NCBI GenBank assembly: GCA_963737155.1
Contig: CAVTRN010000002.1
Span: 32,001 to 96,000, forward strand
Direction: 5' to 3'
From: Nitrospirota bacterium
GTDB taxonomy: Bacteria > Nitrospirota > UBA9217
Length of the DNA stretch: 64,000 nucleotides
Shown: positions 3,179 through 34,992 of the stretch, piece by piece
How positions within the stretch are numbered: position 1 is the first letter of the stretch
How the letters are laid out: each line of letters starts with the position of its first letter
Position numbers and translations under genes: made by a program
Notes under the pieces: model-generated
Told to the model about the DNA's origin: nothing
Database searches by the model: none
The model's input: the letters and a program-made list of their open reading frames with translations, nothing else

Positions 3179-3440
3179 TTTGAGCTGATGGATGACCTTC
3201 TACCCAATAACTGATTCAGCCAGAAGCGATAATCTCAGGTGTGCATGATACAACCAGCTATTCTTTGCCATCGTCAAAACATTGGCAGTGCAAGATAGAG
3301 GATTTTATGCAAACACTTCACATAATAGGTGTAGAGCGCAATATCCAGAAAATGCAACTCTTGTGATCTTCATGATGTAGTTCACGCCTATACGGGAGGA
3401 ATTGATTTACACAATATTATACTATTGGTGTCTGTAATCT

Positions 3441-3543
3441 CGAAGATCAGAGGTTCAAATCCGGCCAACGCTACCAAATATATCAATGGGTTACAGCATA
3501 TCTGTAACCCTCTTTTTTATTATCAGGACAGAAACAGGACAGC
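3441..3543 (+). repeat. tRNA-Met 3'-half repeat copy 1 (chimeric T-arm) + terminator + CAGGACAG direct repeats
   Basis: cgaagatcagaggttcaaatccggccaacgctacca (3441-3476); hairpin gggttacag..ctgtaaccc plus T-run (3488-3518); caggacagaaa/caggacagc (3524-3543). Confidence 0.85.
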
Positions 3544-3644
3544 TTATTATTAAAAACTAGTTTATATTTCGTTATAAATATTGTATAATTATATACAAAT
3601 AATTGTACGAAATTATACAAATATTTGTACTTATTAATACAATA

Positions 3645-4224
3645 ATGGAATATAGAATTGATAAACAAGCAGTGCTAAACATAATGGAACAATGGAATCT
3701 TTTTTTACGAAAAAAGGTTCATCTCATTGCCTGTAGCGGAACCGCGATGACGTTATTAGGTGTTAAGTCTTCGACAAGGATATCGATTTCATGGTTCCAA
3801 ATGAGCCCGAATACGAGAATCTGATCAAGGTCCTTCAGCAACTCGGTTATGAGCAGGAGACAGCATCCGGGTGGAAACGAAAAGACGAAATCTTCAGATT
3901 CGACCTTTTTAAGGGGAACAAGATCCATACAACGGAATTGCCGAATCACCCCTTAAGAAAGAAAATCATACAGTTCTGAAGGAGTATTCACGCTTATATA
4001 TAGGGATACTGAATCCATACGATCTTATCGCGAGCAAACTGTTCCGCGGAACAGATGTTTATTTTCAGGATTGCCTCATGCTAGTAAGAGCCAATCGGAT
4101 CATCAACGTCGATCGTCTTAAACGCCACTACGAAGAAATGGTCAACTATGATGTTTCAGAACAGCGGATCAGTCCGCATATTGATCACCTTATCGAACTC
4201 CTCAGAGAGGAAAACCTAGTATGA
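3645..4224 (+). pseudogene. Frameshifted nucleotidyltransferase (DUF6036-like, AbiEii-like fold)
   Basis: Pieces in different frames join to give IACSGTAMTLLGVKSST/KDIDFMVP...LNPYDLIASKLFRG...DCL; stop overlaps next start (ATGA). Confidence 0.7.
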
Positions 4225-4892
4225 CTAACAAAACTTTGATGGAAAAAGTAGCGCGGCTTGGATTGCCGCTCATGGAGACTAGCGAGGAAGTAGACGTAAA
4301 CCAGACTCTTGCCGAAGTCGTGAAAAGCGGTGATATCCGGCTTTGGGAAGGATTTCCCGTTTTGCTCTTAAACTCAATGAAGGACAACAACTTCAAGTAT
4401 GAACAGGTCTCAAATAACTTGACACCGAATGAACGAGCGACATTTCACGCGTTATTGCTTTTGTCGTTGACCCTCTATTTGAATTATCATCTTTCATTTT
4501 CATGGGTGAAACAGCTAAAGAACAGATTTTCGGACGAAGAGAAAAGTCGACTAAAGCAACTACGGAATTGGCTTGCCCATAACGATTCTTTTGTTTATAA
4601 CAACACGCGGTTTGACGCAATACGCCTAAAGAAAATGTTTGAGCTTTATTATGAGAAGGATGCAGAGAAGGGCAGGCAGAAGAAAGAAAGTTTTGAAAGT
4701 CTTTCTTTTGAATATTCATTATCTCAAATGTTTTCTCCCAAACAGAAAGAGTTGCTCAAGAAGAGGCTGGAGGGGCTGCCTTTGACAAAGACGGAACAAG
4801 AATATTATTCCCGGACAGTCAAGAAAAAGCTTGCCGCCCTGGCCAATTCGGAATTGCATCATACGGCACAGCGGTTATTGCAGCAGAGATAG
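4221..4892 (+). CDS. Hypothetical protein translationally coupled to the nucleotidyltransferase (putative TA partner)
   Basis: 223-aa ORF, ATGA overlap with upstream pseudogene, lies between tRNA-fragment repeats. Confidence 0.7.
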   Translation: MTNKTLMEKVARLGLPLMETSEEVDVNQTLAEVVKSGDIRLWEGFPVLLLNSMKDNNFKYEQVSNNLTPNERATFHALLLLSLTLYLNYHLSFSWVKQLKNRFSDEEKSRLKQLRNWLAHNDSFVYNNTRFDAIRLKKMFELYYEKDAEKGRQKKESFESLSFEYSLSQMFSPKQKELLKKRLEGLPLTKTEQEYYSRTVKKKLAALANSELHHTAQRLLQQR

Positions 4893-5005
4893 GCGGATCA
4901 ATCTGTACCCCTTTTTGTAACCCTCAGTGGGGAAAATGACCGGATGCTTAGACTAAGCGGAGACCAGCCACCTTCAATGGTTTATGCGTTTTTGGTCTTT
5001 TAGTA

Positions 5006-5091
5006 CTCATAACCCGAAGGTCGTCGGTTCAAATCCGGCCCCCGCTACCAAACTTATCATGGGGTTACAGCTTACGCTATAACCCTTTTTT
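5006..5091 (+). repeat. tRNA-Met(CAT) 3'-half repeat copy 2 (anticodon loop to CCA) + terminator; att-like
   Basis: ctcataacccgaaggtcgtcggttcaaatccggcccccgctacca matches the 3' half of initiator tRNA-Met; no 5' half or D-arm upstream. Confidence 0.92.
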
Positions 5092-5106
5092 CTAACGGTT
5101 CTAATG

Positions 5107-5212
5107 CCCTGCCTTGTGTCCCGCCATAATAAAAATCGCAATTGTGAATGATAAGCCATTGAATTGATTGGGCGGGGATAGGGGAGATATCAAATCGGCA
5201 TCGGAGAGACTA
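5107..5212 (+). repeat. ~105-bp spacer element X with terminal imperfect inverted repeats; second copy at 12826-12934
   Basis: cctgccttgtgtcccgcc..cgcaattgtgaatgataagccattgaattgattgggcggggataggggagata aligns with cctgtctcgcgtcctgcc..cgcatttgtgtatgataagctcttgaattgtttgggacgggaaaggggagaca. Confidence 0.8.
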
Positions 5213-5327
5213 CCCGATGGTCAGAGGTTCAAGTCCGGCCCTGGCTAGCAAACTCATCATGGGGTTACAGCATTTGCTGTAAACAATTTTTTTATCAGGC
5301 TGCATCAGGACAGTTACAATACAGTTC
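5213..5327 (+). repeat. tRNA-Met 3'-half repeat copy 3 (chimeric T-arm) + terminator + three periodic repeats
   Basis: cccgatggtcagaggttcaagtccggccctggctagca; gttacagc..gctgtaaac plus T-run; caggctgcat/caggacagtta/caatacagttc. Confidence 0.85.
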
Positions 5328-5490: not shown

Positions 5491-5790
5491 TTATGTATGC
5501 TCAACACTAGCGTGCAATCGCAAACCAAGAGCGCGTACTACCTTGAGTATTGTGGCAAACTCCGGGTTGCCGTTGGGAGAGAGGGCTTTATAAAGGCTTT
5601 CGCGGCCAAGTCCGGCTTTGCGAGCAACCTGTGACATGCCCTTTGCTCTGGCAATGTCTCCCAAGGTTGCCGCAATCAGAGCCGGGTCGCCATCCTCGAT
5701 GGCGGCTTCAAGATAATTAGCCATGTCCTTGTCGGTCTTCAAATAATCCACTGCGTCCCATTTTGTCGTTTTAAGTTTTTCTTTTTTCAT
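5491..5790 (-). CDS. Addiction module antitoxin (HTH, HI1420/HigA-like)
   Basis: WDAVDYL...YLEAAIEDGD...ARAKGMSQVARKAGLGRESLYKALSPNGNPEF. Confidence 0.9.
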   Translation of the reverse strand: MKKEKLKTTKWDAVDYLKTDKDMANYLEAAIEDGDPALIAATLGDIARAKGMSQVARKAGLGRESLYKALSPNGNPEFATILKVVRALGLRLHASVEHT

Positions 5791-5799
5791 GTTGTCCTC

Positions 5800-6090
5800 C
5801 TACAGAATCCGTGCCAAGTCGAGGGCTTTTTCAATGTCCCGCGCCTGTGTGCGTTTATCGCCGCCCGCAAGCAGGATTACCACTTCCCGGCCGCGCTTTA
5901 TGAAGTAAACCCGGTAGCCAGGACCGTAATCGATTCGTAGCTCCGAAACGCCCTCTCTCACAGGCGACACGTCTCCAGGGTTCCCTAGCATCATGCGCCG
6001 AAGCCGCGCGTTAATTCTTGCAACGGCCTGTCGATCACGAAGCCCCGTAAGCCAACGCTCAAAAACATCAGTCTTCCGAATTTCGATCAC
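5800..6090 (-). CDS. RelE/ParE-superfamily toxin (HI1419/HigB-like)
   Basis: GNPGDVSPVREGVSELRIDYGPGYRVYF...LLAGGDKRTQ; toxin upstream of antitoxin. Confidence 0.9.
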   Translation of the reverse strand: MIEIRKTDVFERWLTGLRDRQAVARINARLRRMMLGNPGDVSPVREGVSELRIDYGPGYRVYFIKRGREVVILLAGGDKRTQARDIEKALDLARIL

Positions 6091-6147: not shown

Positions 6148-6788
6148 AACTCTTTATGGTACTTTCAAAAGTCGCCACATGCTGAGGATTGTTGTGGAGG
6201 AACGGAGTTTCGATTCTTATTCTGCCGGGCACATAATTGTAATAATAATCTATGCCATGCCCTTCTTCATCAGACGTTTTTGCCTTAGACATAATAAAAT
6301 AACTTTTTTTTCGAGAACGCTGGTGATTTGTTCATGTTTGATCTTATTTTCATCGAAATGAATTAATGCGCTGCCGGTAACAGCGTCGGTTTCTACCGAC
6401 GTTATCCCTTCCAAACTCTTTATGGTACTTTCAAAAGTCGCCGCATTGCTGAGGATTGTTGTGGAGGAACGGAGTTTCGATTCTTATTCTACCGGGCACA
6501 TAATTGTAATAATAATCTATTCTATGCCCTTCTTCATCAGACGTTTTTGCCTTAGACATAATAAAATAACCCTTTTCCTCGAGAACGTTGGTGATTTGTT
6601 CATGTTTGATCTTATTTTCGTCGAAATGAATTAATGCGCTGCCGGTAACAGCGTCGGTTTCTACCGACGTTATCCCTTCCAAACTCTTTATGGTACTTTC
6701 AAAAGTCGCCGCATTGCTGAGGATTGTTGTGGAGGAACGGAGTTTCGATTCTAATTCTACCGGGCGCATAATGGTAATAATAACCCAT
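6148..6788 (-). pseudogene. Tandemly repeated (~267-bp unit, ~2.4 copies) HMA2-like domain gene with frameshifts
   Basis: Unit restarts at 6148, 6414, 6682; ATG at 6788 gives MGYYYHYAPGRIRIETPFL..., continuing EGITSVETDAVTGSALIHFD after a +1 shift. Confidence 0.75.
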
Positions 6789-7428
6789 CAAATATTCCTC
6801 TCCTCTATTATTAAAATACGACACAGCACTGTTTAGCAAAGTTAAGTTATAAGTTAAGTCGCTTCAGGGTTAAGTGTGGGAGCCCTAATATGTTGATATA
6901 AGCTGTTTTCGCACTGAAAGGGGTAACTGATCGATAATGCAAGGCTTTCCACCTTAACTGCTGGGGTTTATTCTTTTTCCTCTATTCTACATTTTGGTGC
7001 TTCCCACACTCGTTCCGGAAGGGCCTAAGTTAATAGTATGTTGATTTCTTATACATCATAAATTATATAAAAACTATTAGAGATATTCAATCTCCCGTTT
7101 CAGCTTTCACCCATTTCGGTTAATTATTGAAAGGTTTTACTCTTTCTCGTCGCCCAATGGCGGCATGTTTAATGGTTGGAGTAACAACATGTATAATAAA
7201 ATTAGAGTCCTGTTTCTGTACACTCGATTAAGTAAATTCGTGTAGCGAATTCTGGTGGTCCATTCCTTTTTTACAAGGACTGAACTCAACACGCGGGCCT
7301 GTCGGTAAAAAACGCAAGACGTTCAAACATGATATAATATTGCAGAGTACAATCAATAATAACTAAAAGCTATCTTTGAAAACCATAAGTCATAATTAAT
7401 CGACAGGAACGAGTTTATTCGCCGGCAA

Positions 7429-7731
7429 ATGAAGTTTACGGCATTTGCCTCAATAATTCTGGTTTTGTCTCTCGGGATCGGAATTGGAGGGTATCATAGT
7501 TTTGGGAAACTGCCTTGGCTAGATGCCTTTCTCAATGCTTCAATGATTTTAACGGGAATGGGCCCAATCGATCATCTTGAAACGGACAGTGCCAAGTTAT
7601 TTGCTGCTTTTTATGCACTTTATAGCGGCGCAGCTTTTCTCGCGTTTGTTGGTGTACTATTTGCGCCTTTATACCACCGTTTCTTTCATAAATTTCATTT
7701 TAACATGGAGGATACTAAGGATGATCATTAA
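7429..7731 (+). CDS. Small two-TM membrane protein with pore-helix-like segment
   Basis: TM - WLDAFLNASMILTGMGP - TM; N-terminus possibly degenerate. Confidence 0.7.
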   Translation: MKFTAFASIILVLSLGIGIGGYHSFGKLPWLDAFLNASMILTGMGPIDHLETDSAKLFAAFYALYSGAAFLAFVGVLFAPLYHRFFHKFHFNMEDTKDDH

Positions 7732-7981
7732 ACAGGGTATTGCTGTTGTAGTGCCTTAAAGTATTACACTGAATATATTTGTATTGGTATTCCTCAGCTA
7801 TTAAGCGGTAGCGTGTTCTGGATAAGTCTCCATTAAGGGAAATTCGCCGAATAAGACCGAGGAGAAAAACCTGGAGGTTATCGCCGGTAGTACAACACTT
7901 AGCCACACTCCATCAGAACTGTCCGGCCTGCAGAAATGATCGGAGGAAACAATCATAAAAGGCAAGAGGGAGGCGCAAGGC

Positions 7982-9667
7982 ATGCGGTTGCCCTTTTTTC
8001 AGGGAATCATTCCCATCAAAGGTTCGCAGGCGCTGACGGATATCATAGCCGGTCTCACGCTGGCCGCCCTCGCCATTCCCGAGGTGATGGGCTACACGAA
8101 AATATCCGGGACCCCCGTAATCACCGGCCTCTACACCATCCTCATCCCGATGACTCTATTCGCACTTTTCGGCTCATCCCGTCACCTTGTCGTCGGTGCC
8201 GACTCTGCGACGGCGGCTATTCTTGCCGGTACTCTCACCGGGATGGCCGTGATCGGGTCGGCTCAGTGGCTTGCGCTGGCTGAAGTCCTGGCGGCTCTGT
8301 CGGCCGGTTTGCTGATCATCGCCCGTATCATTCGCCTGGGGTTCCTTGCGGATTTTCTGTCTCGAACGGTGCTCATCGGGTTTTTGTCAGGTGTAGGCGT
8401 TCAGGTCGCTCTTGATGAAATCTCGACCATGTTAGGGCTTCCGGGAGGAGGGCATGGTCCAATCCAAAAGATCGTTAACGATCTTCATCAGGTCAAACAG
8501 ACGAATTTCTACGCCCTGGGTGTCTCCCTGGCCGTGCTTGCGGTTATCACCGGATCAAAAAAGATTTCAAAAAAGATCCCTGGTGCGTTGATCGCAGTAA
8601 CAGCAGCCATTGTCTCCAGCTCGGCGCTCAATCTTGAAGCTCACGGCGCACATGTGCTTGGCGCAGTTCCGAGCGGCCTGCCAGCGATCGGACTGCCTGA
8701 TGTGCATTGGGATACCGGCCTTATTTTGAAATTGCTTCCCACCGCGTTCGCCATGTTCGTGGTGATCCTGGCCCAGAGCGCGGCGACATCCCGCGTCTAT
8801 GCAACTCGCTACAACGAACGATTCAGCGAAAACGTGGATTTGGTGGGCCTGGGCCTTGCTAATGTTGGCGCCGCGCTGAGCGGGACTTTTGTTGTGAATG
8901 GAAGCCCTACCAAGACTCAAATGGTCGATAGTGCCGGCGGTCGCAGTCAGCTCGCCCAGATTACTGCAAGCTTCATTGTCCTTCTAGTGCTGCTTTTCCT
9001 GACGGGTCCGCTGGCCAGCATGCCAATTGCCGCCCTCTCCGCGGTAGTTTTCCTGATAGGCGTTGAATTGATCGATGTCAAAGGGATGCGGAAGATCTGG
9101 GTACAACGCCCGCCGGAATTCTGGGTGGCGTTGATCACGGCTATCGCGGTGATTGTAGTCGGTGTCGAGCAGGGTATTCTCCTTGCGATGGTACTGTCAC
9201 TCATAGAGCACGTGCGGCGAAGCTACCGATGTAAGAACGCCGTACTCGCACCTGACGAGAAGGGTGGCTGGCGGGCGTTGCCGGTGGCCACTCCTGAACA
9301 AGTCCGGCCCGGCCTACTACTATATAGCTTCAGTCATACTATGTACTATGCAAACGCCGAACAGCTCTCGACAGAGGTTGTCGAACTTGCAAAGGGGGCT
9401 CAGCCTCCCCTGATCTGGTTCTGTATCGACGCGTCGGCGGTTGCAGATGTTGATTTCACTGCGGCATCAACTATTCGCGACATCTACGGCATCTTAGAGA
9501 AGGAGGGCATCCGGCTTGTGTTTTCCGAAGTTATTGACCCCGTCAAGGCTGAGTTGGACAGATATGAGCTTACCGACCTGTTTGGGAAAGATGCCTTTTA
9601 CGATACAATCAATGCAGTAGTAAGTGCATATGACAATAGGTCTGCAGGCAACCAAGACAGGAAATGA
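7982..9667 (+). CDS. SulP family inorganic anion transporter with STAS domain
   Basis: DIIAGLTLAALAIPEVMGY, LFGSSRHLVVGADSA, C-terminal DASAVADVDFTA STAS motif. Confidence 0.93.
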   Translation: MRLPFFQGIIPIKGSQALTDIIAGLTLAALAIPEVMGYTKISGTPVITGLYTILIPMTLFALFGSSRHLVVGADSATAAILAGTLTGMAVIGSAQWLALAEVLAALSAGLLIIARIIRLGFLADFLSRTVLIGFLSGVGVQVALDEISTMLGLPGGGHGPIQKIVNDLHQVKQTNFYALGVSLAVLAVITGSKKISKKIPGALIAVTAAIVSSSALNLEAHGAHVLGAVPSGLPAIGLPDVHWDTGLILKLLPTAFAMFVVILAQSAATSRVYATRYNERFSENVDLVGLGLANVGAALSGTFVVNGSPTKTQMVDSAGGRSQLAQITASFIVLLVLLFLTGPLASMPIAALSAVVFLIGVELIDVKGMRKIWVQRPPEFWVALITAIAVIVVGVEQGILLAMVLSLIEHVRRSYRCKNAVLAPDEKGGWRALPVATPEQVRPGLLLYSFSHTMYYANAEQLSTEVVELAKGAQPPLIWFCIDASAVADVDFTAASTIRDIYGILEKEGIRLVFSEVIDPVKAELDRYELTDLFGKDAFYDTINAVVSAYDNRSAGNQDRK

Positions 9668-9716
9668 GCAAGTTCGTCCAGCGGATTTGGAGTTTGTCTC
9701 ATTAGCTGATTTGAGA

Positions 9717-10508
9717 TTAATTCTTACTGGAAGGACGGTTCACAAAGTCTTCGATTACGTGGCGCAATCGAATAATTTCTTCTTGGATGTCTTGAAGCGA
9801 CTTCTGACGTGCAATTTCTGTATTTTGATCTTTGGTGACTCGATCAATGAAAAATGTCGCAATGAGGGCAGTGAGATACCCAAAAACCGCTATCGCGTAG
9901 ACAGATATGGCGAGACATAGAATGCGCCCGCCGGTCGTTTTTATTGGATAGCCGCTACCGATGTTCGTTATCTGCATGGCCGTCCACCAAAGAGCATTCG
10001 GATATGTGTGAATACTTTGAGGATCATCGGAGATTCTCTCAAAATGGAGCATCCCGGCTGCACCAGCGAAGATCACCACAAGGGTGAATGTGAGCACATA
10101 AGCGGCACCGCGGCGTCCGAAGGAACGACGAATAGAACTCATGCCCTGTTCCGCTGATGCGAAAATCCAGATCACCTGCATTCCGAAAGTCGCAGTCAGA
10201 GCACGTACCAGCGGGAAGGAATTCATGAAGGGGAAAAATCGCAGTACAGAGGCAAGAATCGCTAAAACAAAGAGCCAATTCCTTTTGAAAAAAGCTTTCT
10301 GATCGTCAACAGTCGCCAGACGCACGGCGAAATAAAAAATAAATAAAATCCAAATGCCTGTGCCACAATAAGATATCACGGGATTTGTGCTGTAGACGAG
10401 CTCGGTGATTAGTATGCAGAGCCAGACAAAACTGAGAAATAACATCGGCAGTTCGAGTATTTTCTCCAGAGCTAAAAGCTTCGGGTATTTTGGCGTATTG
10501 AGAGTCAT
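9717..10508 (-). CDS. Ion transporter / potassium channel family protein
   Basis: Multiple TMs, ALWWTAMQITNIGSGYPIKTTGGR pore region; start probably MTLN at 10508. Confidence 0.8.
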   Translation of the reverse strand: MTLNTPKYPKLLALEKILELPMLFLSFVWLCILITELVYSTNPVISYCGTGIWILFIFYFAVRLATVDDQKAFFKRNWLFVLAILASVLRFFPFMNSFPLVRALTATFGMQVIWIFASAEQGMSSIRRSFGRRGAAYVLTFTLVVIFAGAAGMLHFERISDDPQSIHTYPNALWWTAMQITNIGSGYPIKTTGGRILCLAISVYAIAVFGYLTALIATFFIDRVTKDQNTEIARQKSLQDIQEEIIRLRHVIEDFVNRPSSKN

Positions 10509-10904
10509 CAGCCCCCCTATTTTGCGGCGAGAGGATTGTTTGTCTTTCATGGCCGCATTATATTTGCAAAGGATCTTAGCAAAATCTACAGCGAGACAGA
10601 CAATTGCATTCTCAGACCCTAGAGTGCACGCTATGGTATGAAACATCACCAGATTGCAAAAGCCACTTGTGATCAGACTGTAGGATGGACCAATGCGCGT
10701 ATCCGGCGCTTCTGTTGAAAAATAATGCTTCGAACGCCTCCGTGTGAATGCTCCACCATAGCCCCGGTAGTAACAATAAGTTTTAGTGAACTTGCCTCTG
10801 ATATGTCCTTAATTATATCAATTATTAATCGCTTATGCTCCGGCCGATTTTTTGGCATACAGTCAAAGTATTTTATCATGCTTAGATTTATAAAACAGTC
10901 CTGA

Positions 10905-11033
10905 AATACCCAGCAGCTTGCTGCTGGGATGAAAAGGACATCCTGGCGAAGCCAGGATAAGTCTTCAGCTTCTTTGTTGTGCTTTTTTAAGGTTTCAAGT
11001 TCCGATGCCCCGCAGCTTGCTGCGGGGTAATTC
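10905..11033. mobile_element. Pair of GC-rich palindromes, MITE-like / IS200-IS605 end-like
   Basis: cccagcagc-tt-gctgctggg (10909-10928) and ccccgcagc-tt-gctgcgggg (11008-11027); no transposase between them. Confidence 0.6.
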
Positions 11034-26543: not shown

Positions 26544-26547
26544 AAGC

Positions 26548-26735: not shown

Positions 26736-26796
26736 TTATTACTTTACGGATTTGGTCCAGACCGCATACATGATTCATGCGCAGTCGTCTAATCAA

Positions 26797-26850: not shown

Positions 26851-26999
26851 AGGAAAAGGGAAGTACTAAAGGCGCAATTGGTCACTACCGGTCATGTGCT
26901 TACGTTATAACTGAGAGTTGTAAACCGACAAGCGGACGTAAAGGTCGTTCCGTACAATAACTAACTACGAACTTCGTTGGGGCTCTCATGCAGTTCGAG

Positions 27000-27118
27000 G
27001 ATTCTCTTGGTGAATACATCCGGGCGGTGTACAGCGTGAGCAGGATGTACAGGACGCCGATCAACAAGAACAGCTTGATTGGAACGGCAGCAAGTCTGGT
27101 GAAAGGTTTTTAGACACG
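27000..27118 (-). pseudogene. Remnant N-terminus of a duplicate sensor kinase
   Basis: FLLIGVLYILLTLYTARMY matches FCLIGVLYILLTLYTTRMY of the intact kinase. Confidence 0.8.
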
Positions 27119-27121
27119 ACG

Positions 27122-27841
27122 CTACCCCTTGTCCATATCTGCTGAATCGGAAAGCTTATAGCCAATCCCCCTCACACTCAAAATGTACCGAGGTTGGGCA
27201 GGGTTTATCTCGATTTTGGCCCTGAGGCGGTTAATATGGGAATTGACCGTGTGCTCGTAGCCCTCATACCCGTAACCCCAGACTAAATTCAGCAGCTCCT
27301 TGCGTGTGTTCACCCTTCCTGGACAATTCATAAAATGGAGTAACAGGTCGAACTCTTTGGCTGTCAACATTACAGGATTTCCTCGGAGAGTAACATTCCG
27401 CTTTTCAACATCAACCACGAGATCGCCTGCCTGGATCGTTTCGTGCGATTGATGCGCCGCCTCCAACTTAAGCGCCTCCACGCGACGGAACAGAGCCTTA
27501 ACCCGCGCCATAAGTTCGCGAATGCCGAATGGTTTTGTCAGGTAATCGTCTGCTCCGATCTCCAGGCCGAGAACCCGGTCAATCTCGGAAGACCGAGAGG
27601 TCAGCATTAAGACGGGAATGTAGGTCGCGGCGGTTCTCAAACGCCGACAGATCTCCAGCCCGTCTATGCCTGGCAGCATCAGATCCAGAATAATCAGGTC
27701 GTGTTTCTTCGAGAGGGCTTGCTCGAAACCAGCATTGCCGTCAAAGGCCAAATATGCTTCGTATCCTGTATCCCTCAGATGAAGCTCCACAAGATGAGCG
27801 ATATCTTTATCGTCTTCAATTATAAGAACTCTGCGAGGCAT
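27122..27841 (-). CDS. OmpR/PhoB-family response regulator
   Basis: VLIIEDD, DLMLPGIDG, GADDYLTKPF, winged helix HTVNSHINRLRAKIE..RGIGY. Confidence 0.95.
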   Translation of the reverse strand: MPRRVLIIEDDKDIAHLVELHLRDTGYEAYLAFDGNAGFEQALSKKHDLIILDLMLPGIDGLEICRRLRTAATYIPVLMLTSRSSEIDRVLGLEIGADDYLTKPFGIRELMARVKALFRRVEALKLEAAHQSHETIQAGDLVVDVEKRNVTLRGNPVMLTAKEFDLLLHFMNCPGRVNTRKELLNLVWGYGYEGYEHTVNSHINRLRAKIEINPAQPRYILSVRGIGYKLSDSADMDKG

Positions 27842-28013
27842 ACTTTTCTACTCTTTCAGCATATTTGTCTTGATAATAGTAAAAAGTATATCATAAAAAT
27901 ACCGGAAAATTTTGCTGCTACTCTGAAAATACTCATTCCCAGTTATTTAAACGATAAGCTTCCGGTTTCGCATTTCTATTGCTTTCAACAATGGAAAGGT
28001 GGGACAATTTACC

Positions 28014-28862
28014 ATGGCCGAACTGCACGATCCCACAATATCCCGTTTCCAAAGATACTCGATACTCCTGCTGGTGCTGGTTGCCGGTACCGCGGCCTAC
28101 TTCGCAATTGAAAGGGGGCAGCATACCATGAGCCCGAGCGCTTTTGCTTCCTCTCCCAACTCTTCGAAACCCCTGATCGACACCTTCGCGCCAAAACAGA
28201 TCGCTACGGCCACCTTTGCAATGGGCTGATTCTGGGGCCCGGACTCCCGGTTCGGGAGCCTGGCTGGCGTTGTCAGGACGCGCGTGGGGTACGCAGGCGG
28301 GAAAAAACAGAACCCCACCTACCATGCTCTCGGCGACCATACCGAGACCATCCAGATCGACTACGATCCCTCTAAGATATCGTACCGCGATCTGCTCAGG
28401 GCCTTCTGGACTGGTCATGATCCTACCTATCAAAACTGGTCCCGTCAGTACGCCTCCATTATCTTCGTGCACAACGTCGAACAGCGGCGGGAGGCCGAGG
28501 AAACGAGAACAGAGGTCGAACAGGAGCGAGGCAGGAAGGTCTATACTGAAATCGACGCGTACAGTGGCTTTACTCTTGCCGAAGACTATCATCAGAAGCA
28601 CAGTCTCCGTCAGTTCCCGGCCTTCTACGAAGAGCTCAGCCGCCTCTATCCTTCCTTTAACGGCTTCGTTGCTTCGACGGCCGTAGCTCGGGTGAACGGA
28701 TATCTCGGTGGCGAGGGCTCCTATGAGGAACTCAAAAAGGAAGCGGACAGTCTTGGTTTGTCCTCGGCGCGGAAAGAGGAACTCCTCCAACTCGTAGAGC
28801 GGCAGAGGGGTAGGCAGGACTGTCCAATACCGACGAAGGGTCTTGCCGCAGGCGCTCACTGA
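28014..28862 (+). CDS. msrA: Selenocysteine-containing methionine sulfoxide reductase A with N-terminal TM/signal (UGA at 28227-28229)
   Basis: TFAMG-UGA-FWG at the MsrA GCFWG site; frame continues to TRVGYAGG, DHTE, AEDYHQK; hairpin downstream of UGA. Confidence 0.92.
28241..28260 (+). promoter_or_regulatory. Bacterial SECIS-like hairpin
   Basis: ctcccg-gtt-cgggag, G-containing loop about 20 nt after UGA. Confidence 0.7.
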
Positions 28863-29045
28863 TCGGAAAGATCCCTTTGGGGCAGATTCTCAACGTTTGT
28901 ATGATCGGGAAGAAGATTATGTTGCAGCAATAGATTCATATACACAAGCACTTAAGTTCAGTGAGGATTTAAATCTCAGCTGACACGATCGTCTCATTTC
29001 GTATCGACACTGCTGAATTTACATTATAAACCAAAAGGAGAAAAC

Positions 29046-29687
29046 GTGAAAAAAGCACTTGTTGCAGCAGCACTACTATCACTGACACTTGCAGTACCCG
29101 CATTCGCAACTGAGGGTGGTCAGACGCCGAATACGCATAGCCAAGCCTTAGTGCTCTTTGAGCAGGGAGAAAGCTTACTTCAAAGCGACAAGTACGGAGA
29201 AGCCAAAAAGGCTTTTACCGAGGCGATTGCCCTGAATCCAAATTATGCTGAAGCCTATGACAGCCTAGGGAAAGTTTTTATGCTGCAATTAAAATACGAT
29301 GAAGCAACAAAAGAATTTGCCAAAGCAATCAATCTCAACCCTGACGACTACACGGCTTACTTCAATCAAGGAATTGCATTTTATCATTTGGGGAAAACTA
29401 ACGAGGTCATCCATAATTTCACTGAGGTTATTCGCCTCTACCCCAATAACCAGGCCGCTTACAACATTCGCGGCATTGCCTATTTCGAGCAGGGAAAACT
29501 CGACGAAGCTATCCGCGACTATTCAAAAGCCATCGAGCTCAATTCAGGCTATACTAAGGCGTATAATAATCGTGGAATTGCTTATTTGCGACAGGGGAAA
29601 ACTGCTGAAGCAGAGCGTGATTTCGTTAAATCTGGACAACCTATGCCTGGAGCAACAGGAACGCGTCTTAACGAATGTGCCTTTTAA
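29046..29687 (+). CDS. Secreted tetratricopeptide repeat protein
   Basis: Signal peptide AFA; about five TPRs (AYNIRGIAY...AIELN). Confidence 0.88.
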   Translation: MKKALVAAALLSLTLAVPAFATEGGQTPNTHSQALVLFEQGESLLQSDKYGEAKKAFTEAIALNPNYAEAYDSLGKVFMLQLKYDEATKEFAKAINLNPDDYTAYFNQGIAFYHLGKTNEVIHNFTEVIRLYPNNQAAYNIRGIAYFEQGKLDEAIRDYSKAIELNSGYTKAYNNRGIAYLRQGKTAEAERDFVKSGQPMPGATGTRLNECAF

Positions 29688-29989
29688 TTGCAGGCAGAAT
29701 ATATTTGATAATTTATTATTTAACCCACCTGATGTGATTGGGCAGTTGTAAATGTTTGTGAGACCTGCAATATTGAAAACACAGGAATCTAAACGGGAAT
29801 TTAAACCAACACCGGTCCGCTTGACCCGCCTCCTGGCGCTTCGCGCCTAGCAGAGGGAATGCGCGGACCAGAGTGCAAAAAGTCGGGGAAGAACGCCAGC
29901 CGGCCCATGGTGTGACGGCTGCTTTTGGACCCAACCAGAGCAAGAAAGACCGTTTTTGTAGAGTTCCTCAAAAAAACTTACCATCTGCA

Positions 29990-30396
29990 GTTTTCGCAAT
30001 TAATTCATCCGCCAGCATATGTTTCTCCCCCATGCAACGATTGGACAAGGCGTCTTTATTGGCGCCAATAGTGTAATTAGCCCAGGATGTATTCTCAAGG
30101 ACCACACATTCATCCACAGCGGAGTGACCGTAGGGCATGACACGATCCTTCACGACTACGTGCGTTTGAATCCCGGATGCAATATAGCCGGCCATATTGA
30201 AATATATGACAATGTGGAGATTGGCCCTGGCGCAAACGTAATAGAAGAACTCATTATTGGTAAAAGCGCTGTGGTTGCGGCCGGAGCAGTCGTTATCAGG
30301 GATGTAAAAGAAAAAACACTAGTTGCAGGTGTTCCAGCGATTGTAAAGAAAGTCTATGATAGACGAGCCAGTGAAATGCAAACATTAAAATTATAG
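29990..30396 (+). pseudogene. 5'-truncated sugar O-acetyltransferase (NeuD/PglD hexapeptide repeat)
   Basis: LIHPPAYVSP/HATIGQG (frameshift)...VGHD...AGAVVIRDV..VAGVPA. Confidence 0.75.
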
Positions 30397-30471
30397 TCGC
30401 ATCAGGATAAAGTGTAGGAAACCCCACTATGTTGATATAGGCTGGTTTCGCACTGAAAGGGAGGTTCGGGC

Positions 30472-30651
30472 GTGAATATTCAGGAAGTCAGAAGCATAGC
30501 AAGAAAAATGGGGATTGACACAAGGAAAGTGACTGTGACAGACCTTGTCAGGGATATTTAAACAGCAGAAGGGAACAGACCTTGTTTTGCTACATCCTCT
30601 GTTCAGACATGTGGTCAAATGAATTGCATGTGGCGTTCAGATTGCAAGTAG
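30472..30651 (+). pseudogene. Small SAP-like / Cys-rich protein with internal TAA
   Basis: MNIQEVRSIARKMGI...DLVRDI*TAEGNRPCF..CGQMNCMWRSDC; RBS ggagg; stop at 30559-30561. Confidence 0.75.
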
Positions 30652-31030
30652 GATTTTAAAATCAGATTAATAAAAGTTGATACTTATTTCCTCCGTGAGA
30701 GAGCATCACCTGTTCTCTGCTATTACCCTAATTCAAATCCTATAGGAGCCTGTGCATAAATCACATGAAATATTTATACGAATATTATAGTATTGGCCAT
30801 CACGCGTATAAGGAGACGCTCGATGGCCTGCAATTTCAAAGACTGCAACCGAAAGAGACTTTATAAGGGCAGGAGATATCCTTTATATCCTTCACAGGCT
30901 TTACATGAATCATATTGTCATCAAAACGCTTTTCAATTTTAATTGAGGAGGGAAGTTTCTGCATTCACCTGTAGAAAGACAGGGGAAATTATAATCACAG
31001 TTGGTAGTCTTTTTTATCGCTTCATTCAAT

Positions 31031-31279
31031 TTAATCAAGAAACTTGCCACCACTTATTTTGTCAAATGGTTCATCGAACGCTCCTAAAGGGTATTCAAAT
31101 ATCGTCCGTGTATATGATATCTTTTTGCCGCAATTGCATTTAATTAGGTCTTCAGCGGTATGAATGGCTTCTGATCCCATTTCCCTGTCATTGTCGCTTT
31201 CAACTAAATCAAAAATGAGTTCAACGTTAATTCTATTCTTACATTTTTCACATTCTATAATCGCTGATGTTGGTGGCAT
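31031..31279 (-). CDS. Small putative zinc-ribbon protein
   Basis: CEKC...REMGSE...CNC..EYPLG; RBS aagga; AT-rich. Confidence 0.6.
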   Translation of the reverse strand: MPPTSAIIECEKCKNRINVELIFDLVESDNDREMGSEAIHTAEDLIKCNCGKKISYTRTIFEYPLGAFDEPFDKISGGKFLD

Positions 31280-32050
31280 TAGATTAAATTTCCTTTTGTT
31301 TTATTAGAATATCGGGAGCTTACAATAGTTCGATTACCCATGCAATTATAATCTTTGGGTTGGGATGTGATGTCGTCAGATTTACTGATAAATCGGTGCT
31401 CCCAGTGTTGAAGCAATGATATCCTCAACATCTTCATTGGTCAAGGCTAGTTCTTCATTCATTTCCCTAGCTCGGTCTTTTGCTCTGGTGTAGGTACATT
31501 GCCGGCGAGCCCAAAATGCTGCCCTCAGAACGGGAATAGCACTATGGGTAGCAGGAAAGCTCTTTCAATGGCAGTGAAACAAATTGACAATCGGAAGAGG
31601 CAGACGGCTTTAAGTTACTTGGTGGTGAATTTAAATTTTATCGGTAGGAACTCATTAGGACTGCCTGAACATTACAGATAAAAAAACGTACCTTGGGTTT
31701 AAAGTTACTCGAGGTGAATAGCATCTTCTTCCGCCTTAACAGAAGCATTAGGCTTCCCTCTTTGTAGCTGATGAGGGCTTGCACACTGCAATCTGGTTTA
31801 GGTGAATTAAATACAGTTAACCTCGACTTCAAAACCCAAGGTATTTCATGAAATGAATGGATGCTTTATCACATTCCTTATCAATATCGAACTTATTTGT
31901 GCTTATATTATTAATCTAGCACTTTAAATATAAAAGTCAAGGTGGGAGGAACCCCCTTTTCAGTTGCATAATCCTTATTGCTCCGTGTCTTGCCTAAGTC
32001 GGAAATGTGCGCCGTCTGAGTTAATGGACATCTGGTAGAAAATTGCGTCT

Positions 32051-32308
32051 CTAGTGAGCAGGACCCGTCACTGTAGCCACATTGTTCCGCACGAGGGAGT
32101 ACAGATATGCCTTGCCGGCTCTCCGCTGCTGCACCGCGCCGAGATCGACTAGGGAGCCTAGAGCCTGAATTGCCCCCCGGTGACTGAGTCGCGCAAGCTC
32201 TCCTACCTGCCTGCCGTTCAGGGGTTGCGGAGAGGTAAAAAGAACACGAAGGATGCGGATTTTCGCAGGACTGCCGAAGACGGATTCTAGTGTGTTGCGG
32301 AACATCAT
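32051..32308 (-). pseudogene. Truncated winged-HTH (N-terminus typical of HTH-nucleotidyltransferase antitoxins)
   Basis: LESVFGSPAKIRILRVL..GRQVGELA...L.DLGAV..RAGKAYLYSL, then breaks off. Confidence 0.6.
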
Positions 32309-32458
32309 GCATGGATACTATACTATCCATAAGAATATGCCAAGTATCCATTGTCAATTTTCTACTACTGGATATATTCCCTGGCCCTTGCCTCTTGACG
32401 GAAGGGCGTGAACGGCATATAGTCAGAATATCAGAAAATCATATTTTCGGAGGTGCCT

Positions 32459-32731
32459 ATGCCCACAGTCCGCATTCGTGAGCGCGGCCAGGTAACCATA
32501 CCTTCTTCCTATCGGAAGGACCTTGGCCTCGAAGAGAACGATTCCCTGAACGTGGTCAAGATCGATGAGATGCTCATCCTTACGCCGCGGAAACCCTTTG
32601 GCGACGCCGTGGCCAGGAAAGTCGAAGCCGGCATGAAGCGCAAGGGGCTGACCATGGACGATCTTCTGGACAATCTGAAAGAGCAGCGCAAAAGGTATGC
32701 TCGTGAGGCCTATGGCAAGGTCAAAGCCTAA
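32459..32731 (+). CDS. AbrB/MazE/SpoVT-family antitoxin
   Basis: VRIRERGQVTIPSSYRKDLGLEE. Confidence 0.88.
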   Translation: MPTVRIRERGQVTIPSSYRKDLGLEENDSLNVVKIDEMLILTPRKPFGDAVARKVEAGMKRKGLTMDDLLDNLKEQRKRYAREAYGKVKA

Positions 32732-33164
32732 AGTCTTTCTGGATTCAAGCGCGCTCATCGCGGGGGTCGCCTCCTCAAAAGGCGCAGCCCGCGAGGTCCT
32801 GCGTCTGGCGGAAATAAGGCTCATTGAAGCGATCGTGTCGCGCCAGGTGGTAGTAGAGGCCGACCGGAACATCACGGCGAAGCTCCCTGAATGGCTCGAT
32901 GATTTCCGTGCCTATGTGGAAACGCTTGCTCCGGTACTTATCGAAGACCCTTCTGCCAGAGACGTCAAACGGTATTCTTTGCTTATCGATCCCGGCGATG
33001 CCCCGATCCTGGCTGCAGCGTCGGCGGCAGAGGCGGACTATCTTATCACCTGGGACAGAAAGCATTTTATGACGAAGGGGCCGCAGGCTCTCTCCCGTCC
33101 GAAAGTCATGACGCCGGGCGAGTTTCTGCAGGAACTCAGAACGTCGCTGAATGAGGGAGCATAA
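32712..33164 (+). CDS. PIN-domain toxin
   Basis: VFLDSSALIAG...E...DPGDAPILAAA...YLITWDRKHF. Confidence 0.88.
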   Translation: MARSKPKVFLDSSALIAGVASSKGAAREVLRLAEIRLIEAIVSRQVVVEADRNITAKLPEWLDDFRAYVETLAPVLIEDPSARDVKRYSLLIDPGDAPILAAASAAEADYLITWDRKHFMTKGPQALSRPKVMTPGEFLQELRTSLNEGA

Positions 33165-33326
33165 CATTGCTTCAGCTTTTATAGCTACGCTGCTACTGTT
33201 GGTTCGTCCAAATGCTGGAACATCATAGAGATGTAATTTCTTTTTGTGACTTGCCCGGTGTTCCGGGAGACTTCATCGCGTATCCGGACCGGGAAAGCAA
33301 CAACCATATTCATATCATGATCTTCT

Positions 33327-33725
33327 TTGGGAGTAGAATATGTAAAATCGCTTATGTTTTTAACCATGTCGTTGAGATTGCTTCTGAAAAAAGCACCACT
33401 CACGACGGCATTCATACAAACAAGAGGATATCCGGTGATACAGGCAGAGATTCACAACAGGCTGAATGTCATCGACTTATCCGAGGAGGCCTCGTACCCT
33501 GACCTCGCTCGGAAAGAGGATGTACTAACAAGCAACGTCTTTGGTATCCTCAAGAATTTCGACGTCAAGATTCTCAACAAGCTCCTGGAGGTCGCCAAGG
33601 TTCCTGTCAAGCTTAGCTACAACGACTTCTGCCTTGAATTTTGTCCCACTTTGTCGATGGTACTTAGCTTTGTGAGCGAAAACGAATTTGAGTACGATTT
33701 CGATCATATTGTTCTCGGCCTGTAA
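33327..33725 (+). pseudogene. Fragment of hypothetical protein (EDVLTSNVFG motif, possibly a nuclease N-terminus)
   Basis: RKEDVLTSNVFGILK motif; short and apparently truncated. Confidence 0.35.
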
Positions 33726-34067
33726 CTTCAATTTTTTTATTCTGCTTTTTTATTTCCCTATAAGAATTGGCCGATTCCGTTTAATCCACGAACTTAATCC
33801 GACAAATCGACATTCATTCCGACGAATCTTCTGGGTCGCGTCGCTTCTATCGATGATCACATAATACAGCATGTATTTCTCATTTTATGATATAGTTTTA
33901 TGTCATTTGGCCCCGATTGCCCACGGCGTATATACGGAAGCGTTCGTACTTCATGAAGGCGTTAAGCGCTGGACCTTTCAACATTGAAAGTTTCATATCG
34001 AATCTTTGTTCTAAACGACGTTGAATGTTTCTGACCTTGTTACTCGGAGTTCTGTGGCTGAATACCA

Positions 34068-34820
34068 ATGAGTATGATTAAATTTCCTCTTCTTTTCGTA
34101 GCAGGTCTTGTTGCTGGGCTTATTGACGCCATGGCAGGAGGCGGTGGGATCATTACCATTCCCGTGCTGTTAGGCATAGGTATGCAGCCCCAGATAGCAC
34201 TCGGAACGAACAAGCTCCAGAGCACTTTCGGCTCGGGAAGCGCCATGCTGCATTTTACCAAAGCCGGCGCTGTGGACATCCGGGATTGCGTGGCAGGAAT
34301 CGTCTGGACCGCGTCTGGCGCTGCGGTCGGTACTATGGCTGTGCAGATGCTCGACCCGTCCTTTCTCCGCCGGGCAATTCCTGTCTCGCTCATCGCCATT
34401 GCCCTGTTCATGCTTTTCTCGCCCCATCTTGGCATTGCGGATGTCCGCGAACGGATGCGAAAGAATTCATTCTTCGCCCTATTCGGCTTGCTAATCGGGT
34501 TCTACGACGGCTTTTTTGGGCCTGCGTCTGGCACCTTCTGGGCCATGGTGTTCGTACTCTTTCTTGGGTTCAATTTGACACGCGCCACTGCTTACACCAA
34601 GGTAATGAACTTTACGAGCAACCTGGTCTCGCTAGTCTTCTTCCTGGGAGGTGGATTCGTATCTCTTCCTGTGGGGATCGTCATGGGACTAGGGCAGTTC
34701 GCAGGCGCGCGCATCGGATCGCGCTTGGTCATGAGCAAAGGCAGCCGCTTCATCCGGCCGGTTTTCATCGCCATGGTTCTTGCTGTCAGCGTAAAGCTCC
34801 TGTGGCAGAATTTTCGGTAA
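34068..34820 (+). CDS. TSUP (TauE/SafE, YfcA-like) transporter
   Basis: AGLIDAMAGGGG..ALGTNKLQ..GFYDGFFGP. Confidence 0.92.
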   Translation: MSMIKFPLLFVAGLVAGLIDAMAGGGGIITIPVLLGIGMQPQIALGTNKLQSTFGSGSAMLHFTKAGAVDIRDCVAGIVWTASGAAVGTMAVQMLDPSFLRRAIPVSLIAIALFMLFSPHLGIADVRERMRKNSFFALFGLLIGFYDGFFGPASGTFWAMVFVLFLGFNLTRATAYTKVMNFTSNLVSLVFFLGGGFVSLPVGIVMGLGQFAGARIGSRLVMSKGSRFIRPVFIAMVLAVSVKLLWQNFR

Positions 34821-34959
34821 GGGATGCGTAAACTCACTGAAGGGCGTTCAGAAAGTTGATGCGGTCTTGATTGCTCTTGGAGACGGTTATTTTTATTGCT
34901 GCGAGAGTCGATGAGGTTCTGCCTGAGCTGCACCCCTGAGTTTGGGCGGTCAGGTCTAC

Positions 34960-34992
34960 AACCCGAATGTCATCGGTTCAAATCGGGCCCCC
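34960..34992 (+). repeat. tRNA-Met 3'-half repeat copy 6 (degenerate, no terminator)
   Basis: aacccgaatgtcatcggttcaaatcgggccccc, preceded by gtctac similar to the copy 4 flank. Confidence 0.7.

Follow-up and report, generated by a model that had tools for sequence, protein, structure and literature searches.

The window analysed here is a stretch of 64,000 nucleotides on contig C2 of a Nitrospirota genome (G000). A preliminary description had placed in it six plus-strand copies of the 3' half of the initiator tRNA-Met (tRNA-fMet) gene, and sequence matching bears out their number and positions. No intact tRNA-Met and no PF00589 match were found in the window, in line with the same description. 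The copies and the genes lying between them, in window coordinates, are as follows.

3437..3545 (C2:35437-35521), + strand: copy 1, tRNA-fMet 3' part with hybrid T stem, terminator and putative arm of family A (two AGGACAG repeats)
5007..5095, + strand: copy 2, which begins within the anticodon loop and has a terminator and a putative family-C arm (TTCTAAC repeats)
5096..5208, + strand: doublet spacer from copy 2 to copy 3, ending in core GAGACTACCCGATG
5209..5325, + strand: copy 3, with core, hybrid T arm, terminator and putative arm of family A
5491..6090, - strand: HigA-like antidote (dnstrm_HI1420/HTH_3) and HigB-like Gp49 toxin, 0.17 kb past the copy 3 arm
6431..11035, unstranded: cargo between copies 3 and 4 (HMA-domain protein, SulP sulfate permease with STAS, ion-channel protein, unknowns)
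11644..12350, + strand: VapBC-like pair (AbrB/MazE-type antitoxin, PIN toxin) that lies 0.39 kb ahead of copy 4
12733..12934, + strand: copy 4 (family C), spacer and core 4b (GAGCCCACCCGAAG, at 12921-12934)
12935..16108, unstranded: unit U45, 3174 nt, no integrase, placed exactly at the core of a doublet
16105..16225, + strand: core 5 (GAGCCCGCCCGACG) and copy 5, with hybrid T arm, terminator and putative arm of family A
16443..16972, + strand: BrnT toxin and CopG-type BrnA antitoxin, 0.22 kb past the copy 5 arm
17275..34820, unstranded: cargo between copies 5 and 6 (DUF6680 fragment, MsrAB, molybdopterin oxidoreductase, lactonase-like protein, histidine kinase, response regulator, TPR protein, hexapeptide transferase, TauE/SafE exporter)
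32453-33164: second AbrB-PIN pair, within the cargo of the copies 5-6 unit
34956..34992, + strand: copy 6, truncated (tRNA positions 38-70, 30/33 identical), without terminator

When the 15-mer GGTTCAAATCCGGCC was matched with up to three mismatches, the window yielded nine matches against 1.91 expected, and none of 100 shuffles reached nine or more. The six copies differ from it by 0, 0, 1, 1, 3 and 1 mismatches, respectively; the other three matches, all on the minus strand and with three mismatches each, look like chance. Copy 2 is the best preserved (77/80 identical to the gene plus flank). The hairpin GGGTTACAG..CTGTAACC follows copies 1 to 5 and is absent after copy 6, as first described, and it is the terminator of the intact gene at G000:C1:66303-66379(-). 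The 5' flank common to copies 1, 4 and 6 (ttggtgtctgcaaccc-like) is also real, but it had been taken for non-tRNA sequence; its alignment to the tRNA's anticodon stem-loop (tcgggctcataaccc) shows it to be a diverged tRNA-like core and not unrelated sequence. In copies 1, 3 and 5 the T stem is unable to pair (5' AGAGG, 3' CCGGC). Such stems never came from a working tRNA unless they mutated later or arose by a crossover in the T loop, an observation that speaks against serial accretion.

In the five copies that retain the gene's own terminator, it is followed by a short stretch of direct repeats that, judged from sequence, form putative arms of the type found beside a recombination core. Over the genome as a whole, at least three families can be told apart: A (AGGAC[AG]G, two or three times), B (GTGGGCCGGT, two or three times) and C (TTCTAAC, twice). 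Across the whole G000 genome, two of three family-A pairs and two of three family-C pairs are located at tRNA-fragment sites; the family-B pattern is too loose for specificity, with 17 matches in the genome and one at a fragment. The doublet spacer is conserved after family-C copies, twice in G000 and also in the congeners G011 and G001.

The gene on contig C1 is the sole initiator-type tRNA-Met of G000. A profile scan of the genome returned this intact gene and 19 fragments, every one on C2, and the copies are not scattered genome-wide: 15 of the 19 lie inside C2:24-336 kb (312 kb) and 16 of the 19 are on the plus strand. The four far-off fragments stand at 420 kb, 628 kb, 798 kb and 1.59 Mb of C2. 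Three of the 19 fragments are inverted. Other tRNAs of G000 have fewer fragments, three each at most. In 14 of 18 copies the match to the tRNA sets in at the anticodon stem-loop (tRNA positions 32-42), in the other four at positions 20-28, and in 16 of 18 it extends 18-57 nt beyond the gene end into the terminator, so that the fragments start at a fixed sublocation and reach the gene end or beyond. The repeated 3' part is of the kind left by tyrosine integrases, as had been proposed. Copies farther from the presumed gene end are not consistently less similar to the tRNA.

Congeners carry the same repeat, with 23 matches in G001, 22 in G011, and six each in G014 and G016. In G011, fragments run on behind the intact gene (C3:519522), on its own contig and strand, as far as 777616, and G014 has the same arrangement, an intact gene heading a co-oriented array of displaced 3' fragments on a single contig. 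The gene and the array of G000 are on separate contigs, so their orientation and adjacency are deduced; the start of C1 is presumably joined to the start of C2, and GC skew is compatible with a C1(rc)-C2 join without proving it.

The window units lack an integrase of their own, as first described, but the system as a whole is not without one. Outside the window, G000 has the intact tRNA-fMet gene, two intact tRNA-fMet-type integrases, intA and intB (Arm-DNA-bind_2 and Phage_integrase), and two remnants, at C1:22.6-26.4 kb and C2:13.3 kb. The genome has 11 PF00589 matches in all, none of them in the window or beside the array head. The 3 kb around each of the six window copies contain no integrase or remnant, and neither do the tRNA-proximal units of G011 (6.4 kb) and G014 (4.6 kb). 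No scar was found between the three tandem integrase paralogues on C1. The search for a tyrosine integrase beside an intact tRNA-Met, suggested in the preliminary description, succeeded in the congener G002, where an intact 413-aa enzyme (Phage_integrase, SAM-like and weak Arm_4 domains) abuts the tRNA-fMet gene and is followed by HTH_3 and HTH_17 genes (regulator, excisionase-like) and then by defence-type cargo. C-terminal remnants of this integrase type adjoin a degenerate family-C site in G000 (C2:281042-281197) and recur at the orthologous position of G011. Of its named relatives, intB is closest to a Marinospirillum one (48% identity), which lies 1 kb downstream from an initiator-type tRNA-Met; a terminator, three direct repeats and an AlpA-like gene accompany them. 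We infer a pairing of integrases with arm families.

Between the window copies, the units 1-2, 3-4, 4b-5 and 5-6 are att-flanked and without integration and transfer genes (CIME-like). The same holds for single-TA units elsewhere: a 1.1-kb Phd+ParE unit between scars in G001 (C11), a 1.7-kb Xre/MbcA+RES unit between scars in G011, and a 1.07-kb unit with a 165-aa protein and RHH partner in the unrelated metagenome contigs L045/L046. Cargo at the locus differs between relatives: G000 and G011 have shuffled blocks in common and no global synteny. Window positions 17.8-27.9 kb are common to G011 C3:648.8-658.2 kb at 88-89% identity, and some blocks exceed the similarity of rpoB (91% identical between the two), with 95.6% over 1341 nt and 96.7% over 1194 nt.

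A toxin-antitoxin gene within 0.5 kb of every copy had been reported, and this holds for copies 2 to 5, four of the six, whose neighbours are the HigB/HigA-like pair (5491-6090, copies 2 and 3), AbrB-PIN (copy 4) and BrnT/BrnA (copy 5), but not for copies 1 and 6. Searches with Pfam and PHROGs found no NTase pair beside copy 1. The neighbour of copy 6 is the TauE/SafE exporter, its nearest TA pair (AbrB-PIN, 32453-33164) is 1.8 kb off, and the "orphan CopG" assigned to it comes down to a sub-threshold DUF6364 match on a 76-aa ORF. The enrichment in TA genes is strong regionally and modest locally: four toxin families have 13 of their 24 matches in 8.7% of the genome around the locus, a region set after seeing the data, and neighbouring fragments in this test are not independent. 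TA genes begin 64-220 nt past intact P' arms, where an integrase is normally expected. The excess beside scars may reflect elements that carry TA pairs at their ends, together with units resisting inter-scar deletion by virtue of the TA pair they hold.

Unit U45 deserves a separate account. It contains an SDR fragment, a DinB-family protein, small ORFs and a TA-like pair made of a 165-aa protein and a 94-aa RHH/UPF0175-like partner, and it is flanked by a duplicated 14-nt core. Copy 4, its spacer and core 4b form the left junction of the occupied site, and core 5 with copy 5 the right one; the empty form of the site is the copy 2-spacer-copy 3 doublet, 7.6 kb away, and it is also present in G011. 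On a soil-metagenome contig (X1, 1164 nt, depth 5.45), the right end of U45 is joined to its left end via an 11-nt core; X1 is an assembled contig of a ~97%-identical strain, and a circle or a tandem copy would give the same junction.

Taken together, the anatomy and distribution of the repeats, the congener arrays, and the integrase at the tRNA with its remnants point to classical tandem accretion rather than to an integron or a MITE. We consider it highly likely that the repeats are hybrid attachment sites (attR-type scars) left by serial site-specific integration into the single initiator tRNA-fMet gene. The process as such is known; what is unusual in this genome is its scale and the small size of units that amount to one gene pair. 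Each incoming element would bring a copy of the tRNA 3' half, the terminator and a P' arm. Recombination, with a crossover probably situated in or near the anticodon stem-loop, would restore a working tRNA gene and displace the older 3' half downstream. Many rounds of this, involving at least three element families with distinct arm repeats and predicted arm-binding tyrosine integrases as recombinases, could have produced a plastic zone that exceeds 300 kb and abounds in TA, defence and accessory genes; the window would be its proximal part. We propose that most integration modules have since been lost, which would make the window units non-autonomous, and that old scars may double as secondary landing sites. 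Counting against this reading are the lack of an integrase near the window copies and in the tRNA-proximal units of G011 and G014, the separate contigs of gene and array in G000, the irregular course of identity to the tRNA along the array, and the missing scars between the integrase paralogues on C1.

A different reading, which we regard as possible but doubtful, takes the units for active non-autonomous cassettes of 1-3 kb with their own att arms, many holding one TA pair, that would be excised in trans as circles and re-inserted at the tRNA or at scars. If integrases acting in trans move small units in this way, the array would be a gene-capture platform with a logic like that of integrons or cis-mobilizable elements. 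The original suggestion of small integrase-less cassettes survives in so far as the units have no integrase within and several are single TA pairs, but membership among integrons fails. U45, with its duplicated core and its empty site in G000 and G011, fits trans movement, as do the single-TA units between scars in G001, G011 and L045/L046, the TA genes at the usual integrase position, one identical P-arm sequence found with differing cargo, and the presence in G000 of intact integrases for trans action. The occupied and empty sites and the X1 junction favour the movement of integrase-less units in trans, without proving it; the end-to-end junction is known from the metagenome strain and not from G000, and tandem duplication would look alike. 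A HigBA pair directly after the tRNA in one of two G005 contigs is another point for cassettes, but as G005, a metagenome-assembled genome, has 6% contamination, the two contigs may derive from different strains. Selective decay would likewise leave TA-only units, and the one element found whose integrase directly adjoins the intact tRNA gene, that of G002, is autonomous. That the initiator-tRNA locus of this genus works as an integron-like capture platform made from tRNA-derived att sites, in which TA cassettes keep the array from falling apart, is a tentative idea.

Two further explanations do without integrative elements. Spread by transposition of a tRNA-derived MITE or SINE-like element, near TA genes by chance, would suit copies that are short, numerous and non-coding, a few of them distant and three inverted. 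It is extremely improbable in view of the concentration and shared orientation of the copies, the arrays beginning at an intact gene in G011 and G014, and the match of every copy to the gene and its own terminator, ending at the anticodon stem-loop; the alignments showed neither terminal inverted repeats nor target duplications, and the arm repeats and adjoining integrase indicate site-specific recombination. Segmental duplication or homologous recombination of the tRNA locus without mobile elements is very unlikely as well. Repeats of 90-330 nt could permit unequal crossing-over, and C2:25-27 kb resembles C2:64-67 kb within G000, but only the 3' half is duplicated in this genome, three unrelated arm families follow one core, cargo differs among units and is in part closer across species than rpoB, and integrases and their remnants are present.

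Serial accretion at the tRNA-fMet gene has several known counterparts. Chromosomal (super)integrons are long arrays of small units, many of them TA pairs thought to be stabilising, in which one recombinase acts in trans on repeat-bounded units. The present array is likewise long, with small units of which many are TA pairs; it differs in its tRNA-derived att sites with arms, which are not the imperfect palindromes of attC, and in genes lying on both strands with their own signals (HigBA on the minus strand). IntI, attI and Pc were not found in G000, as judged on the 11 PF00589 matches. Islands and prophages in tRNA genes reportedly leave a displaced 3' fragment as a direct repeat, through sublocation-specific integrases that cross over in an anticodon or T loop flanked by its stem and whose genes adjoin the tRNA gene; the displaced fragment is common to both, a crossover of this kind is probable here too, and an adjoining integrase gene is seen in G002. 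Typical cases comprise one to a few islands, whereas the one gene studied here has 19 scars, with three arm families.

The ssrA islands of Dehalococcoides are arranged in tandem, with more than 12 co-oriented direct repeats of the ssrA 3' end in a highly variable region; in the parts of the account drawn on here, some units have an integration module beside attL and others lack it, the latter proposed to be cis-mobilizable elements kept by accretion (McMurdie et al. 2011, PMC3146451). Both systems share a single-copy essential RNA target with repeats downstream and units of both kinds, and an integrase ORF running into the att site. According to the same parts, Dehalococcoides uses a tmRNA target, a 20 bp repeat within 100 kb, the serine recombinase DsiB and reductive dehalogenase cargo, in contrast to an initiator tRNA, a 40-105 nt repeat with terminator and arms spread over more than 300 kb, tyrosine recombinases of at least two types, and TA/defence cargo that includes single-TA-pair units. 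The tycheposon islands of Prochlorococcus, in the portion of their description used here (Hackl et al., bioRxiv 10.1101/2020.12.28.424599), are also seeded by tRNAs, with new elements displacing older ones inward, and show scattered partial tRNAs and fragmented integrases in persistent islands with adaptive or defensive cargo. Their sites are seven other tRNA or tmRNA genes, and they carry a defined module for integration and replication; that portion does not describe TA-only units or the re-use of scars as landing sites.

For annotation, the finding accounts for 19 pseudo-tRNA-like sequences and provides an island-delimiting rule for the genus: a tRNA half, a terminator and an arm. The locus is also a tractable case for asking whether TA pairs persist in arrays by blocking deletion, and whether units that lack an integrase but keep intact att arms can still move. 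More broadly, the case shows how a flexible region exceeding 300 kb, in which much of the genome's TA and defence repertoire is concentrated, can be seeded by a single essential tRNA gene present in one copy.

The six plus-strand copies of a tRNA-Met 3' half announced in the preliminary description are all present (window positions 3441, 5006, 5213, 12735, 16113 and 34960; copies 1 to 6), with zero to three mismatches to the T-arm 15-mer. With up to three mismatches, this 15-mer has nine matches in the window against 1.91 expected, a number reached in 0 of 100 shuffles. The window corresponds to C2:32001-96000 of a two-contig genome (G000), for which ARAGORN predicts 48 tRNA genes, three of them with anticodon CAT; only the gene at C1:66303-66379 on the minus strand matches the repeats. 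Its anticodon stem has three G-C pairs and its positions 1 and 72 are mismatched, both hallmarks of bacterial initiator tRNAs. The GGGGTTACAGC..GCTGTAACCCC hairpin and T run found 3' of this gene also lie 3' of copies 1 to 5, bearing out the common terminator reported for five copies; the repeat unit thus runs from the anticodon region to CCA and includes the gene's own terminator. The "(ttggt)gtctgc" flank of copies 1, 4 and 6 exists as described, but its supposed non-tRNA origin does not hold: its counterpart in the alignment is the 5' strand of the anticodon stem together with the loop, and it is a diverged tRNA-like core site. Neither the repeats nor the spacers gave a match to an Rfam family. 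The T-stem strands of copies 1, 3 and 5 (window 3441, 5213 and 16113; 5' AGAGG, 3' CCGGC) are unable to pair, and matching fragments in unrelated metagenome contigs (L045:4913 and L045:5983) have a pairing stem, AGAGG/CCTCT. Either drift or a crossover in the T loop with an att site of foreign type may account for the unpaired stem.

Immediately 3' of the terminator lie short direct repeats, which sort into families among this genome and its congeners (G001, G002, G011 and G014).

Arm-repeat families
Family A: AGGAC[AG]G, two or three times; window copies 1, 3 and 5, the G000 gene, and sites in G014, G011 and G001
Family B: GTGGGCCGGT; the G011 gene, and sites in G014 and G000
Family C: TTCTAAC, twice; window copies 2 and 4, the G001 and G002 genes, and further sites

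Genome-wide, two of three family-A pairs and two of three family-C pairs in G000 are located at such sites; the family-B pattern was too loose to inform (17 matches, only one at a fragment). A core flanked by arm repeats is the att layout of lambda-type systems with an arm-binding tyrosine integrase, and by analogy we infer that the core and its family-specific repeats form a putative att site for such an enzyme. The terminator hairpin was dropped as a candidate attC-like site, the conserved core and the arms being outside it.

Fragments in G000 were counted by BLAST and then with a profile made from 43 copies, which returned the intact gene and 19 fragments, all on C2. Sixteen are on the plus strand and 15 fall between 24 and 336 kb; the other four are at 420 (minus), 628, 798 (minus) and 1594 kb. 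The remaining eight of the 28 profile rows were reverse reads of the palindromic terminator (six) and two other tRNA genes. When 18 copies were aligned to the gene and its flank, tRNA identity set in between positions 32 and 42 for 14 of them and between 20 and 28 for the other four; in 16 it extended 18-57 nt past the gene's 3' end. Other tRNAs have left fewer fragments (Leu-CAA 3, Thr-CGT 3, Gly-CCC 2, SeC 2). Two tRNA-Leu(CAA) 3' fragments are at C2:204594-204648 and C1:46151-46192. The fMet fragment C2:203594 is 1 kb away from one of these, and the region also harbours scars left by other tRNAs.

The repeat was matched in 26 of 31 genomes searched, with 23, 22 and 6 matches in the well-assembled congeners G001, G011 and G014, and 6 in G016, of a second genus. 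Two congeners show the gene and its array together.

Gene-headed arrays in congeners
G011 C3:519522-519598: intact gene, array on the same contig and strand
G011 C3, fragments after the gene: 525975, 560365, 570613, 574113, 597679, 599393, 658428, 719155, 729462, 777616
G014 C17:116027: gene; fragments after it at 120624, 128549, 146718 and 173669

An intact gene followed by co-oriented fragments is the signature of tandem accretion. These arrays make it likely that C1 position 1 joins C2 position 1 in G000, with which GC skew is compatible without being decisive. Such a join would put the tRNA-fMet gene some 90 kb upstream of the first scar, with the two oriented alike. The last 1.12 kb of C2 recurs six times elsewhere on that contig at 98.7-100% identity and is probably an insertion sequence at which assembly failed. 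Upstream of the intact gene lie near full-length, diverged second tRNA-fMet copies and a 5' fragment (G011 C3:492792-492867 and 504890-504923; G001 C8:499635-499709), so that this side of the locus has also been rearranged.

As first reported, the window contains no integrase. A tyrosine integrase beside an intact tRNA-Met was seen in G002, where the tRNA-fMet gene (C86:47202-47278) is abutted on the opposite strand by a 413-aa integrase with Phage_integrase, SAM-like and weak arm-binding domains. Next come genes for an HTH_3 regulator and an HTH_17 (excisionase-like) protein, and beyond them the cargo is of defence type (HEPN-like protein, Z1-domain helicase, DNA methylase, GHKL ATPase). The integrase ORF crosses the terminator and acceptor stem (L055:9257-9278, on the same contig) and takes its TGA stop from the complement of the T loop, which is reminiscent of the way dsiB overlaps ssrA in Dehalococcoides. 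Remnants of the C-terminal part of such an integrase adjoin a degenerate family-C site in G000 (C2:281042-281197) and head the orthologous 25-kb block in G011; broken integrases also follow G011 fragment 525975.

Integrase genes of G000
C1:22635-26392, minus strand: three tandem arm-binding paralogues, two intact and one remnant
C2:13279-13746: a further integrase remnant

The two intact genes, intA and intB, share 69% identity, and both encode Arm-DNA-bind_2 and Phage_integrase domains; no att scar separates the tandem genes at C1:22635-26392. The closest named relative of intB (48% identity), in Marinospirillum minutulum, shares its strand with an initiator-type tRNA-Met and is located 1 kb downstream of it; between the two come a terminator, three CCAAAATGTGC repeats and genes for an HTH protein and an AlpA-like protein. 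A family-wide search with intB found nothing in the one other same-genus genome sampled, and was redone on five named congeners. The G002 element, intA, intB and the remnants together indicate that predicted tRNA-fMet-acting integrases exist in the genus and in G000 itself. Near-identical 313-aa and 295-aa PF00589 proteins, present in 11 places in G011 and nine in G001, look like IS-like elements with tyrosine recombinases; G001 has several recombinase trios besides.

The best-supported explanation, which we hold with good confidence, is a classical one: elements were integrated one after another at the initiator tRNA gene by several families of arm-binding tyrosine integrase. After integration the units would have lost their integration modules, and old scars would have been reused as secondary landing sites. 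The locus is neither an integron nor a MITE.

Cargo of the window units
Toxin-antitoxin (TA): HigBA-like, two AbrB-PIN and BrnTA pairs
Other: SulP, ion channel, DinB, MsrAB, molybdoenzyme, two-component system, TauE

A c-di-GMP-I-GGC riboswitch aptamer (RF03167) was also recorded at window 42131-42211 on the minus strand (70.5 bits, gathering score 59). The claim that every copy lies within about 0.5 kb of a TA gene stands for four of the six and fails for two. In the ORFs adjoining copy 1, where an NTase pair had been proposed, Pfam and PHROGs scans detected neither an NTase nor any other TA family, and the ORFs immediately following the tRNA genes of G000, G001 and G011 were likewise negative. 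Genome-wide searches of G000 returned PIN 8, ParE 3, NTP_transf_2 8, Gp49 5 and PemK 0. Thirteen of these 24 matches fall within C1:1-80 kb and C2:1-340 kb, 8.7% of the genome (binomial P 1.6e-8, for a region chosen after the data were seen). A toxin-family match occurs within 1 kb for three of 14 fragments, where random placement in this region predicts 0.83 (P about 0.05), and none of the fragments at 150-336 kb has one within 3 kb; the local association is modest.

The first reading saw integron-style cassettes mobilised in trans. Integron identity is lost, and the mobility of small non-autonomous units is kept alive by a few structures. Copy 2, a 113-nt spacer and copy 3 form a doublet, which recurs split: copy 4, spacer and core 4b on the left, core 5 and copy 5 on the right, and between them a 3174-nt unit (U45, window 12935-16108) in which no integrase was found. 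The duplicated 14-nt core flanking U45 is GAGCCC(A/G)CCCGA(A/C)G, and the empty doublet also occurs in G011 (597684-597979). An ARAGORN tRNA-Phe(aaa) inside U45 (window 14202-14289, minus) is probably false, Rfam giving no tRNA at its gathering threshold. Contigs of four soil-metagenome runs (small word shares, 0.07-0.23) were placed on window 3000-17500 with patchy cover, the uncovered parts being uninformative. One contig from run X1 (1164 nt, depth 5.45, about 97% identical) passes from the right end of U45 through 11 nt (ACTACCCGAAG) to its left end.

That small TA units are still-mobile, non-autonomous cassettes is a tentative proposal, to which we give rather low odds. It draws on the insertion of U45 in a doublet core whose empty form is known, on the X1 junction, on units holding a single TA pair and on the place of the TA genes, which start 64-220 nt past intact arms, the integrase position in the intact G002 element. 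Against it, the X1 contig may represent either a circle junction or a head-to-tail duplicate, which look alike in contigs. Single-TA units comprise Phd and ParE between scars 1.1 kb apart in G001, and Xre/MbcA and RES between scars 1.7 kb apart in G011. In the metagenome-assembled genome G005 a HigBA pair lies directly 3' of the tRNA in one of two contigs sharing a 99.8% identical upstream flank; its right boundary has no convincing degenerate tRNA fragment. The 165-aa and RHH/UPF0175 pair of U45 (70% amino-acid identity) recurs in unrelated metagenome contigs between two fMet-like fragments 1.07 kb apart, surrounded by ordinary metabolic genes. The small units may instead be a residue spared because addiction prevents deletion. 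The two accounts both fit the present data and are mutually compatible.

In the parts of the sources available to us, the closest described systems are the Dehalococcoides ssrA tandem islands (PMC3146451) and the tycheposon-seeded islands of Prochlorococcus (bioRxiv 10.1101/2020.12.28.424599), from which the G000 locus, on those parts, differs in target, repeat anatomy, scale and its one-TA-pair units. No description of a tRNA-fMet-anchored TA array was found in the literature searched, most subscription journals being outside its reach.

In relatives the units carry TumE with an SNF2 helicase, NTase/HEPN and Wadjet JetABC. The rpoB genes of G000 and G011 are 91% identical (80-82% for four other relatives), and the 360 kb around the G011 gene share with G000 only shuffled blocks, global synteny being absent. 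Some blocks exceed rpoB identity, at 95.6% over 1341 nt (NTase/HEPN and P arm) and 96.7% over 1194 nt; the Wadjet unit and its family-A arm are 89% identical between G011 and G001. The sequence after G011 fragment 658428 is that found after the intact gene of G000 (78% over 849 nt). On these comparisons, units are gained, lost, moved and exchanged between species.
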